In this document: positions 6,395 to 9,262 of the stretch, one piece after another
Position numbering within the stretch: the stretch's first letter is position 1
Layout of the letters: each line of letters opens with the position of its first letter
Program-made: the position numbers and the translations under genes
NCBI RefSeq assembly: GCF_000757865.1
Contig: NZ_CP007754.1
Coordinates: forward strand, 930,001 to 962,000
Direction of reading: 5' to 3'
Length of the DNA: 32,000 bases
Source of the DNA: Prochlorococcus sp. MIT 0801
GTDB lineage: Bacteria > Cyanobacteriota > Cyanobacteriia > PCC-6307 > Cyanobiaceae
The notes under the pieces: generated by a model
The model's input: the letters and a program-made list of their open reading frames with translations, nothing else
The model's database searches: none
What the model was told of the DNA's origin: nothing

Positions 6395-6451
6395 TTATTT
6401 TTTATTTTTTTCGTTATTATTTACTGGACGAACAGGCTTAGGTAGAAGCAT
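6395..6451 (-). CDS. Micro-ORF B1 (18 aa): MLLPKPVRPVNNNEKIKK
   Basis: Hand translation on the minus strand gives ATG (plus-strand CAT at 6449-6451) to TAA (plus-strand TTA at 6395-6397). The first 10 residues are identical to micro-ORF B2 (7028..7087), while 7 of the 9 codons after the ATG differ, all synonymously (including CGT vs AGA for Arg). It lies 74 nt downstream of gene A1. Confidence 0.55.
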   Translation of the reverse strand: MLLPKPVRPVNNNEKNKK

Positions 6452-6525
6452 AATAGAATAAGAGCTAATCTTTTTTAACCATGATCGATATAGGAATCTG
6501 CATTTAATGATACGATTTTCTATTT

Positions 6526-6681
6526 TTAGCTTTTATTTGTCTTTTCTATAACTTTTTGGAGTTCAGCTCTTGAAAGAGTAGCTTCAATTTGAGCCAAAAC
6601 TTGCTGTAGTTCGGCAGTTTTATTCAATGACGTCTCAGCCATAGATCTAAGCTTTTGAAGTTCTTTAGAGGCAGTTTTCAT
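6526..6681 (-). CDS. Small helical protein A1 (51 aa): MKTASKELQKLRSMAETSLNKTAELQQVLAQIEATLSRAELQKVIEKTNKS
   Basis: Translated base by base on the minus strand. It is a paralogue of 7176..7334 (NKTAELQQVLAQIEATLSRAELQKV vs DKTPQMQQALARLEATLSRRETQKV), with synonymous differences inside the conserved EATLSR block. Confidence 0.55.
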   Translation of the reverse strand: MKTASKELQKLRSMAETSLNKTAELQQVLAQIEATLSRAELQKVIEKTNKS

Positions 6682-6928
6682 AGATAAAATGAAAAAATTG
6701 ATTTTTTCCTAGAGAAATTACAGATAATTAGCGAAAAAATTAATAGTGACAACACACGAACAAATTTGCCCTAGATTTTCATGATGTCAATAGTTATGAT
6801 TGTGATACATAAATAAATGAATGGTTTTATTAATTCTTTTGTTGATTTTTATTACTTATATTTCTATTAACTAGTTATCAAAATATAAGCAAGATAAAGC
6901 TTAAGACTTATGTTGATTTATAAGATAT

Positions 6929-6964
6929 AAAAAAAAAACAAAGGTATATTTTAATACCTTTGTT
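6929..6964 (-). terminator. Rho-independent terminator for the minus-strand A2-B2 cassette (weaker on the plus strand)
   Basis: A perfect 11-bp stem pairs AACAAAGGTAT (6937-6947) with ATACCTTTGTT (6954-6964), with the 6-nt loop ATTTTA between them. On the minus strand the stem is followed by the complement of the A10 run at 6929-6938, which gives a U-tract. The hairpin sits about 65 nt downstream of the B2 stop. Confidence 0.6.
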
Positions 6965-7027
6965 CTTTTAATAACAAAAAGAGGAAATTAATAAAGATAA
7001 TAATTAATTAAATTGACATCCTTAAAA

Positions 7028-7087
7028 CTAACTGTCTTTTCCTTTCTTTTCAGAATCAACAGGTCTAACTGGCTTTGGCAATAGCAT
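7028..7087 (-). CDS. Micro-ORF B2 (19 aa): MLLPKPVRPVDSEKKGKDS
   Basis: Translated base by base on the minus strand, ATG (CAT 7085-7087) to TAG (CTA 7028-7030). It has the same N-terminal decapeptide as B1 with only synonymous differences, and lies 88 nt downstream of A2. Confidence 0.55.
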   Translation of the reverse strand: MLLPKPVRPVDSEKKGKDS

Positions 7088-7175
7088 GATAAAAATCCAA
7101 TCTCTATATATATTTATAGATGGTTTTCAAGATACGTAAATAAGAATTTAAAGTTTGAAACTTCTTGACACAAGC

Positions 7176-7334
7176 CTATCGCCTTTTAAGAGACTTCTCC
7201 GTCACCTTTTGTGTCTCCCTTCTTGAAAGGGTTGCCTCAAGTCTTGCTAACGCTTGTTGCATTTGCGGAGTCTTATCCATTGATCTCTATGTTTTGGCGA
7301 AAAGTAGCTGAATTTCTCCTGAAGAATTGTTCAT
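7176..7334 (-). pseudogene. A2, a paralogue of A1 interrupted by an in-frame TAG at codon 16 (alternatively a truncated 34-aa product from the internal ATG at 7278-7280)
   Basis: The minus-strand translation is MNNSSGEIQLLFAKT*RSMDKTPQMQQALARLEATLSRRETQKVTEKSLKRR. The TAG (plus-strand CTA 7287-7289) aligns with GAG (Glu16) of A1, which is a single G-to-T change. Confidence 0.55.
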
Positions 7335-7455: not shown

Positions 7456-7677
7456 ATGGAGATAATATCTATGACAGAAGATTGGAAGCCAGTAGATTCT
7501 CAAGTCCTAGTAGACGCATGGGATGAAATTAAAGATTGTGCTGAAGGTATACAAAAAGATCTAGCTTGCCCAGATGAGACTATTTCAAAAATGCTGAGGT
7601 CAGTCGCTGAAACATTTGATAATACTGTCGAAGATCTTCTTGATAAGGCTGAAGAGGATTGGGAAGAAGAAAAATAG
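7456..7677 (+). CDS. Small acidic hypothetical protein (73 aa; possibly starting at MTEDWKP)
   Basis: ORF-track entry. It is highly acidic (..DKAEEDWEEEK) and richer in G+C than the surrounding spacers. Confidence 0.45.
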   Translation: MEIISMTEDWKPVDSQVLVDAWDEIKDCAEGIQKDLACPDETISKMLRSVAETFDNTVEDLLDKAEEDWEEEK

Positions 7678-7692
7678 ATGTATTATTGACAT

Positions 7693-7836
7693 ATGATTCC
7701 AGATTTCTTTCAATCCCCTGAACACCTAACTCATATGGATCTATGGAAAACGATAATTGGCTTGTTCATAGTTTTATTTGCAACTTTTGTAGGCGTCGAA
7801 ATTAGAATTGGTAATGAAGACGAAGAGACAAAATAA
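7693..7836 (+). CDS. Small hypothetical single-pass membrane protein (47 aa); below the ORF-track cutoff
   Basis: Hand translation: MIPDFFQSPEHLTHMDLWKTIIGLFIVLFATFVGVEIRIGNEDEETK, ATG 7693 to TAA 7834-7836. It lies 15 nt after the preceding ORF on the same strand and has one clear hydrophobic helix. Confidence 0.35.
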   Translation: MIPDFFQSPEHLTHMDLWKTIIGLFIVLFATFVGVEIRIGNEDEETK

Positions 7837-8438
7837 TAGTTAATTTCCTAGTAAATCATTTTTCCTTGGCAATTTATTTAATTCTTAAATCTAAATTTGA
7901 ATAATAATGTAGAAAAATATTTGCTTTTTTCAAAATGTAAATGTCAATTAAGGTTTAGCGTAACTTAAAGATTTGCATCAGATAAAAAAGAACTTCTATG
8001 TTGGCAAAAACTAAGTGAACAATATAGATCAATGTGGAGTTGGACAGTTCCAGGAGATTATTTTGTTTTTAACCAAATAAAGGATTTTTCTGTCATATCA
8101 AATAAAGAGTTATCAAACAAATTTGCTGTATTAAAGATTGACATAACTCAAGTTGATCAATTATTTCTTCATAAACTATTGATATAAGTAGAAGATGGCT
8201 ACTTGCAAAAGAATGGAAAGAGGAGCGGATAAACCCTTAAATAATTTAGGATGATAAAACTTACTGTTGGAAAAGATTCATTATATTCCTATCAGCCTAA
8301 GGATTTTGATAGCAATTTATGTAACTAAAGCTAAGTGAATTGATTAATCATAATTCAACAGAGAAATAGAAAAGGAGATTAATGAAAAAACTAAAATTAA
8401 GTTATTTCAATGGTTGATAAATGCAATCACGTTTTTGA

Positions 8439-8603: not shown

Positions 8604-9060
8604 TAAGTTCAGAAGTGCTATATTTTTTATATTTACTACAGCAGTAAATCAAATTAATTTTTTTTAATTATCTCTTTGTCTTTGCTTAACAAGGTTAAGC
8701 AGCATTATAAGTTTTTCTACTTAATTTAATTTCTAAAACCTACCCGACTCTAAACTACATTCATAAATTGAAGTTGCTTTAGCTACGACTTTTGAAAATT
8801 TTAATCAATGGAATCAAGTCTCTTTAGCTACTAGTTTAGGAGAGTGGCATTCATTTTTTATAGTTAAGCAGTTTAGTCGCTAGTAAGCTTTATTCAATGA
8901 CCTCAAATAAATATAGATCTCAAGATTTCTTCCGAAGAAGACCATCCTCAATTATCATGCTTACATACATACCTTTTTCATTTCAGTTATGATTGATCTT
9001 ATTCAAGGATAGTATCTTGAATAATTATCTGTTACTCTGTTAATTTTTAGGTATCTGTTT

Positions 9061-9134
9061 GTCAGTGTAGCTCAGCCGGTTAGAGCACAGCATTCATAAC
9101 GCTGAGGTCGAGAGTTCAAGTCTCTCCACTGACA
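9061..9134 (+). tRNA. tRNA with anticodon CAU (elongator tRNA-Met type; tRNA-Ile2/lysidine cannot be excluded)
   Basis: Cloverleaf folded by hand. The acceptor stem pairs GTCAGTG with CACTGAC. The D arm is TAGCTCAGCCGGTTAGAGCA. The anticodon stem is CAGCA/CGCTG around the loop TTCATAA. The T arm is GAGAG-TTCAAGT-CTCTC and the discriminator is A. No CCA is encoded. It lacks the initiator signatures (a 1:72 mismatch and three G-C pairs in the anticodon stem). Confidence 0.9.
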
Positions 9135-9262
9135 TTATCTAATAAAAATAAAGCCCAGATGAATATTATTGATAATTAAATGAAATTAGAGCTTTTTTAC
9201 GTTTTATTTTTCTGTTACTATTTTTCTTCCGTATATAAGATTTAAATACTTTAAGGTAGACA

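Follow-up and report, generated by a model that had tools for sequence, protein, structure and literature searches.

A duplicated unit of two very small genes, including an unannotated 19-residue micro-gene, in NATL-like Prochlorococcus

The genome of Prochlorococcus sp. MIT 0801 carries, on the minus strand of a stretch of 32,000 nucleotides (nt) that is here called the window (contig NZ_CP007754.1, positions 930,001 to 962,000 of the forward strand), two copies of a two-gene unit. In each copy a gene for a protein of about 50 amino acids (aa), referred to as A, is followed by a micro-gene, referred to as B, for a peptide of 18 or 19 residues, and in the direction of transcription the order is A2-B2-A1-B1. 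An earlier note, made from the letters of the window, had drawn attention to this arrangement and had proposed a functional bicistronic module whose conservation would be confined to the two reading frames. The genes and the elements that accompany them are collected in Table 1, with positions counted from the first letter of the window. The genome of strain NATL1A (CP000553) aligns with the window from 3.5 to 9.7 kb at about 93% identity, which places the window in a NATL-like (low-light I) strain distinct from both NATL1A and NATL2A.

Table 1. Genes and sequence elements of the A/B locus and its border in the window
Feature	Position	Strand	Description
B1	6395-6451	-	18-aa paralogue of B2, encoding MLLPKPVRPVNNNEKNKK
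Block TCGTATCATTAAATGCAGAT upstream of B1	6496-6515	-	Conserved in all B1-bearing marine loci
A1	6526-6681	-	Intact open reading frame (ORF) of 51 aa; predicted single continuous alpha-helix
A1 promoter-like element	6763-6790	-	TTGACA 6785-6790, 16 nt, CAAATT 6763-6768
Intrinsic terminator of the B2 (possibly A2-B2) transcript	6922-6969	-	16-bp stem-loop and U tract; from terminator scan and fold
B2	7028-7087	-	19-aa micro-gene encoding MLLPKPVRPVDSEKKGKDS
B2 promoter-like element	7112-7140	-	TTTACG 7135-7140, 16-nt spacer, TATAAAT 7112-7118
Palindrome block AAGAAGTTTCAAACTT	7151-7166	-	Contains AAGTTT-C-AAACTT, just upstream of the B2 -35-like hexamer
A2	7176-7334	-	Disrupted copy of a 52-aa A2-type gene; TAG in frame at 7287-7289
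tRNA-Met (CAT)	9060-9135	+	Rfam match; borders the small-ORF stretch

When considered at the level of the peptide, B is defined by its N-terminus, as both B frames open with MLLPKPVRPV, just as the earlier note had read them. Over these first ten codons B1 and B2 differ at nine nucleotides, and all nine differences are synonymous; in the 32-kb window a degenerate pattern for the decapeptide has exactly two matches, and 100 shuffles give none. The shared decapeptide contains three prolines and is followed by lysine-rich tails, DSEKKGKD in B2 and NNNEKNKK in B1, so that the B2 peptide reads MLLPKPVRPVDSEKKGKDx, with 8 of its 19 residues charged and no hydrophobic stretch longer than three. Judged from its sequence, B has neither a signal peptide nor a hydrophobic or transmembrane segment. 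The B frames are uncalled in every genome record examined, and no gene caller gives B2 its true size, because it encodes only 19 residues. When a synthetic B2-B2-B1 concatenate was searched against a collection of 5.8 billion proteins, only mis-called versions of the same locus were recovered (with lost stops, upstream in-frame starts and, in one case, a tandem B2-B2 variant), and the motif appeared in no other protein of the collection. B is thus an orphan and no evident mimic of part of a larger protein. A literature search found no paper containing the B peptide sequence or the NATL1A locus tags. Two observations, which draw on a 605-nt metagenome contig (protein P0364) and on L012:3450-3660, concern the number of B copies: some populations hold two B2 copies with only the promoter-like spacer between them, which a gene caller reads as one ORF of 77 aa, and in others a remnant of a B tail (..KKGKSKGY..) precedes the palindrome on its upstream side. 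The number of B copies thus changes independently of A.

The coding status of these small frames can be assessed from the way in which they vary among natural populations. B loci were collected from metagenomes by a scan with the degenerate decapeptide pattern, and A genes by a separate profile scan of species-representative genomes. Nei-Gojobori estimates of the ratio of nonsynonymous to synonymous polymorphism (pN/pS), made over about 100 distinct NATL-like loci, are low in the proposed frames and high outside them: for B2 the ratio is 0.10 in frame as opposed to 0.85 and 1.7 out of frame, for A1 it is 0.17 as opposed to 1.8, and for A2-type genes 0.31 as opposed to 1.05. The search pattern leaves residues 10-17 of B2 free, and among 103 unique B2 sequences these residues are invariant or nearly so, with all synonymous codons in use: four codons serve Val10 and another four Gly16, Lys17 is written AAA in 55 sequences and AAG in 48, and the stop codon interchanges among TAA, TAG and TGA. 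Because the in-frame ratios are low compared with those out of frame and synonymous sites vary freely, both A and B can be classed as protein-coding and under purifying selection, in agreement with the earlier note. B2 is the most constrained element of the locus.

Gene A proved to be more uneven than the note had supposed, since both copies had been taken for intact genes. A1 is indeed an intact ORF of 51 aa. In A2, translation meets an in-frame TAG (7287-7289) at codon 16, and the residual open frame, which begins at an internal Met, covers 7176-7280 and encodes 34 aa; in NATL1A and NATL2A the gene is intact and encodes 52 aa. Because of this stop codon, A2 of MIT 0801 is either a pseudogene or reduced to a remnant of 34 aa. 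A2-type frames that lack the N-terminal part and encode 33-34 aa are found in several independent lineages (the window itself, L007:3409-3513, L042, L147 and protein P0209), all beginning at a conserved internal Met at position 19-20 (..SMNKTAQLQQ..), and the C-terminal two-thirds of A2 might still be made from this start. Nor are the two A proteins as unfamiliar as the note had it, as hypothetical-protein annotations exist for both: A2 of NATL1A is NATL1_10271, and A1 is the preceding record (ABM75584.1/WP_011823706.1). The exact A1 protein is WP_011823706.1, which is encoded in NATL1A and in other NATL-like genomes.

A belongs to a family of exclusively small proteins. The collection of 5.8 billion proteins gave two sets of candidate clusters for it, of 479 (A1) and 89, and a library of 1.84 billion proteins holds 130 representatives at 50% identity, every one of them tiny and none tied in that library to a larger or named family. 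AlphaFold2 models A1 as one unbroken helix spanning residues 2-50, with a mean predicted local distance difference test score of 91.7, and the sequences show a heptad-like hydrophobic stripe together with invariant polar residues (T22, Q26/Q27, S37, R38, E40, Q42 and K43). A is best described as a predicted single amphipathic helix of about 50 residues, which probably pairs with itself or with a partner. Scans of A against Pfam, NCBIfam, PHROG, PADLOC and PDB sequences gave only sub-threshold matches to generic helical families. One candidate assignment, DUF1192 (PF06698), is the JGI/IMG label of some A2-type proteins; it was rejected because the Pfam scan did not reproduce it. The two resemble each other in being small, helical, coiled-coil-like bacterial proteins of about 50-60 aa. 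However, the weak matches of A fall to other generic helical families, all under the cut-offs, and DUF1192 is absent both among the 25 most frequent of the 53 families matched at E <= 0.1 by 79 A members and among the A1 matches. A third A subfamily (MNKTQEQLxKLRKVAExSLNKTEELQKVLAQIEALMS...KKKD) was noticed at L027:4001-4500, L149:90-420 and L150:392-700. It sits elsewhere in the genome, in L027 downstream of pstA/pstB, and 60-250 nt downstream of its A gene lies a conserved non-coding element, TGTGGAAAAAnTTGTGGAAAAA ... GGACTCACTAACAA, which could be another small RNA or a binding site.

The region between A2 and B2 was examined in an alignment (A3) of 60 diverse loci covering -100 to +240 of B2, with which an alignment of 103 sequences agrees. 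A generic promoter scan gives no discrimination in the AT-rich DNA of this region, and the elements described here are defined by conservation. The AAGAAGTTTCAAAC(T/C)TT block, which contains the palindrome, is conserved at levels from at least 90% to 100% in the 60 and the 103 loci and occurs only once in the window; it is a candidate transcription-factor site. The columns of TATTTACG (with the -35-like TTTACG) and of CTATAAAT (7112-7118) are invariant or nearly so, and the spacer between the two hexamer-like elements, 16-17 nt across loci, is partly variable. From this layout transcription of B2 is predicted to start near 7106 +/- 5, which would give an AU-rich leader of about 24 nt, without a Shine-Dalgarno sequence, ahead of the ATG. 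Two known regulator sites were sought in the B2 promoter by comparison with consensus sequences, and both were rejected: for HLR1/RpaB the second half-site would lie where the spacer is variable, and the GTA-N8-TAC of NtcA is unmatched. No other copies of the promoter motifs beyond chance are present in the window, and hence no regulon can be defined. When orthologous loci are compared, no other DNA of the locus, either coding region included, is as well conserved as the 90 nt between A2 and B2. The statement that conservation is confined to the two frames thus holds for the paralogous copies within the window and fails across orthologues.

Downstream of B2 the picture is different in kind. 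The 60-110 nt between the B2 stop and the hairpin are AT-rich and unconserved in length and sequence. The hairpin itself, which the earlier note had placed at 6929-6964 as the possible end of a transcript, is a genuine intrinsic terminator. Compensatory changes occur in every one of the 12 stem pairs tested, the share of paired cells is 88.5% as opposed to 29-58% in slid controls, and none of 500 shuffles reaches the observed values. Promoter-like block and terminator are kept in those loci, about a third (35 of 112), in which A2 is a pseudogene or gone. B2 thus probably has a separate mRNA of about 180 nt, beyond being the mere second cistron of an A-B operon. The proposed bicistronic module is weakened by the survival of this promoter-like block after the loss of A2, while co-transcription with A2 is still compatible with the data, as no terminator lies between them.

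Comparable, if less uniform, elements precede A1 and B1. Downstream of the B2 terminator, a block of the form CTATTGACAT...TGGCAAATT (also found as CTATTGACAT-N-TTTGGCAAATT) with a spacer of 16/17 nt is conserved across 72 unique loci; most relatives have TTTGGCAAATT at the position of the A1 CAAATT. This points to A1 having its own promoter below the B2 terminator. The 5' untranslated region (UTR) of A1 would be about 75-90 nt long (6682-6790 region; alignment A5 of 66 loci), and in most relatives it folds into a hairpin of variable sequence, with a mean z of -1.9, whose end lies some 25 nt upstream of the ATG. The window has only a weak form of this hairpin (-4.5 kcal/mol, z = -0.5), and RNAalifold on a MAFFT alignment of the A1 5' UTR returned no consensus structure, though single-sequence folds show the hairpin in most relatives. 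Upstream of B1, the TCGTATCATTAAATGCAGAT block is still recognisable at loci where B1 has decayed, and it has CGTAT in common with the B2 promoter region. It looks like a diverged counterpart of that region and may also act as a promoter.

The distribution of the two genes was approached from both sides. With the A profile alone, 22 genome loci were found, all in Prochlorococcus, and B2 stands beside A in 21 of them; A followed by B recurs in other genomes with order and spacing preserved, the distance from stop to start being about 86-93 nt from A2 to B2 and about 75-78 nt from A1 to B1. In a retention census with a profile hidden Markov model over some 112 unique B2 loci, 77 have an intact A2-type gene upstream of B2, 29 (MIT 0801 among them) have a partial or pseudogenised one, and in 6 it is absent or unrecognisable. 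Of 106 assessable loci, 95 have an A1-type gene after B2, and B1 is intact after A1 in 13 of the 63 unique loci that carry A1, with decayed remnants in others. Of the 74 unique loci that can be scored at all positions, 72 retain one intact A or more, and loss is reciprocal: ten of the 74 keep A2 without an intact A1, and 18 keep A1 without an intact A2. The array A2-B2-A1-B1 is thus decaying in a complementary way, with B2 and usually A1 kept, and A2 and B1 expendable. Neither gene was matched in viral or phage collections, whether by the B pattern in viral contigs, by tblastn of A and B against 50,697 phage genomes or in PHROGs, which leaves the phage-interaction module that had been considered earlier without any match to lean on.

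The cassette lies inside a 6-kb stretch (3.0-9.1 kb) that contains small ORFs only and is bounded by ordinary genes and by the tRNA-Met gene (plus strand), the latter being in a typical island-flanking position. This tRNA is the sole match of an Rfam scan of the whole window, which gave none within the A/B locus. Divergent from the adjoining A2 on the plus strand are a strongly acidic protein of 73 aa (7456-7677), 95% identical to its NATL1A counterpart, and a protein of 47 aa with a single hydrophobic segment (7693-7836), 85% identical to its own. No family was matched by either protein; the two are further conserved small genes of the region. Also near the disrupted A2, at 7909-8175 on the plus strand, lies the remnant of a pyridoxamine-5'-phosphate-oxidase-like gene of 180 aa (PF12766) that is intact in NATL1A. 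It is a pseudogene in MIT 0801, because only residues 71-159 can be aligned (57% identity) and an internal stop is present.

The explanation that we favour, and consider as a whole slightly more likely than not, is that the locus arose by an ancient tandem duplication of a two-gene unit, with the ancestral minus-strand order A2-B2-A1-B1, and that A and B would be two kinds of small cytoplasmic proteins acting in trans. The functional epitope of B would be its N-terminal decapeptide, followed by the short lysine-rich tail. B2 would be made from its own mRNA of about 180 nt, running from a conserved promoter with an upstream palindromic regulator site to the covarying intrinsic terminator, and A1 would be driven by its own promoter below that terminator. 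Under selection, a functional B (B2) and a functional A (usually A1) would each persist in one copy or more, and the second copies would decay. The function appears to reside in the peptide and not in the RNA, because synonymous sites and the 3' UTR vary freely, and both products may act as free peptide or protein. One A and one B are retained in a complementary manner, and the two occur together only in NATL-like genomes, which suggests that both are required and may work together. That A and B share a pathway, or bind to one another and so modulate a larger cellular target, is offered tentatively, as a possibility that we would sooner bet against. Several points weigh against this explanation. 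Translation and start sites are deduced from sequence evolution only; the B pattern itself served to find the metagenome loci, so that it is the 22 loci recovered with A on which the case for a universal B2 depends; every locus is an orthologue from a single clade, and the adjacency of A and B could be mere inheritance; neither A2 and B2 nor A1 and B1 are separated by a terminator, and bicistronic transcripts may also exist; and the third A subfamily (L027, L149 and L150) has no adjoining B.

The alternative that survives best draws on some of the same points. According to it, A and B are unrelated small genes with separate functions, which have stayed neighbours through joint inheritance and duplication and form no module. 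B2 and A1 each have a promoter-like block of their own, and a terminator lies between the two; a third kind of A lives without B, B2 persists without A2 and A1 without B1, and the loci are all orthologous and come from a single clade. Such independence is harder to reconcile with the retention of at least one A beside B2 in 72 of 74 loci, with the finding of A and B together only in the same set of NATL-like genomes, and with the preservation of A-then-B order and spacing in both units despite a duplication so old that synonymous sites have become saturated. We regard this alternative as unlikely, though by no means negligible.

An altogether different role for B2 would be that of a cis-acting leader peptide, whose translation controls termination at the hairpin and thereby read-through into A1, that is, attenuation. 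The layout invites the idea, as a promoter, a 19-codon ORF, an intrinsic terminator and A1 follow each other on one strand, and B2 is short and contains prolines. However, the stretch of 60-110 nt from the B2 stop to the terminator is variable and offers no conserved alternative (antiterminator) pairing, the conserved TTGACA-16/17 nt-TGGCAAATT block between terminator and A1 in 72 loci would make A1 independent of read-through, conservation at the amino-acid level goes beyond a few regulatory codons to cover the whole peptide, and no A gene lies downstream of the paralogue B1. Cyanobacteria are not known to have Rho, which would rule out a TnaC-type mechanism. Attenuation is thus held to be improbable.

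Tiny, paired and duplicated genes in a variable region beside a tRNA gene also recall toxin-antitoxin or addiction pairs, in which one product is toxic and the other neutralises it, and the earlier note had named a toxin/antidote pair among its possibilities. The retention of B2 without A2 could even be accommodated if B were the antidote to an A-type toxin still supplied by A1. In other respects the idea fits poorly. B lacks the hydrophobic or transmembrane segment of type I toxins; no defence or toxin family was reached above threshold by 79 A members in PADLOC and Pfam; no overlapping antisense arrangement and no conserved antisense element is seen in the 60-locus alignment; and no single cognate pair is obligatory, as the reciprocal loss shows, with 10 of 74 loci keeping only A2 and 18 of 74 only A1 as their intact A. 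The strong conservation of B2 and the purifying selection on the A genes (less so on A2-type genes, at 0.31) are moreover unlike the fast turnover of toxin-antitoxin systems, and we give this alternative very little credence. Finally, that the B frames are untranslated and their conserved sequence is a small RNA or DNA repeat, as might be supposed from a size below what gene callers accept and from the missing Shine-Dalgarno sequence, is practically negligible in view of the three-base periodicity, the use of all four codons at invariant Val and Gly, the interchanged stops, the in-frame pN/pS of 0.10 against 0.85-1.7 out of frame, the lack of any Rfam match and the unconserved 3' UTR.

Within the favoured explanation of two small proteins acting in trans, a more specific and highly speculative proposal, to which only a slim chance is given, can be built by analogy. 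The LLPKPVRP core of B might bind the cell's own ribosomal exit tunnel or DnaK, throttling translation or proteostasis upon a signal sensed at the palindromic operator, and helix A might sequester B, so that together they would form a peptide-based growth brake. If true, such a brake would operate in one of the ocean's most abundant phototroph lineages. Independently of this proposal, it is important to stress that a gene with a pN/pS of about 0.1, a conserved promoter-like block and a terminator escaped annotation despite the minimal and well-studied genomes of Prochlorococcus. Since B2 is widespread in marine metagenomes of NATL-like populations, a large natural population probably makes its product. 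The complementary decay of the duplicated unit amounts to a natural experiment, which provides indirect evidence that both products are needed and ready-made natural knockouts. The locus thus supplies a testable small-protein candidate for cyanobacteria and a candidate operator for a regulator. What is new is an unannotated bacterial micro-protein gene and an orphan family of single-helix proteins; no new principle is demonstrated.

Several known systems share part of these features. Leader peptides such as TnaC, MgtL and those of the amino-acid attenuators are encoded by very short ORFs, some with proline, that are followed by a terminator and lie upstream of a gene on the same strand. B2 resembles them as a very short, proline-containing ORF with a terminator and a downstream gene on its strand, and differs in having no conserved antiterminator, in the A1 promoter-like block, in its conservation over the full length and in the existence of B1 without a downstream gene. 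The Ibs/Sib type I toxins of E. coli, of 18-19 aa, are duplicated, escape annotation, have a strongly hydrophobic character and are matched by antisense RNAs. B is equally tiny and duplicated and likewise escapes annotation; in contrast, it is charged and rich in proline and lysine, and has no conserved antisense element.

Proline-rich antimicrobial peptides are characterised by at least 25% proline, by a net charge of at least +1, with a PRP motif being indicative, and by antimicrobial activity that is exerted on DnaK or the 70S ribosome as intracellular target (Box 1, PMC7736402). B is similarly short, cationic and non-helical, with a net charge of +2 (B2) or +4 (B1), and its LLPKP can be set beside the YLPRP of oncocin and pyrrhocoricin, both being of the form (aromatic or Leu)-Leu-Pro-basic-Pro; the YLPRP core is one that binds DnaK or the ribosomal exit tunnel; this likeness is to be taken as a lead only. 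In proline content B falls short, with 3/19 in B2 (16%) and 3/18 in B1 (17%), only the decapeptide reaching 30%, and it contains PKP and RP but no PRP. Furthermore, these antimicrobial peptides are animal products, whereas B is bacterial and would be made inside the cell. The nearest precedent is found in Prochlorococcus itself, in the genomic islands of the high-light strain MED4, which give rise to short mRNAs and peptide-coding small RNAs with ORFs of 33-130 aa, among them Yfr6 (33 aa) and Yfr9 (44 aa), some of which were suspected to be toxin-antitoxin-like (Steglich et al. 2008, PMC2518516). B is smaller, at 18-19 aa, was found here only in NATL-like genomes and has no sequence similarity to the MED4 peptides. 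What the two have in common are short units, independently transcribed in MED4 and probably so for B2, which lie in variable regions and encode small peptides missed by annotation.

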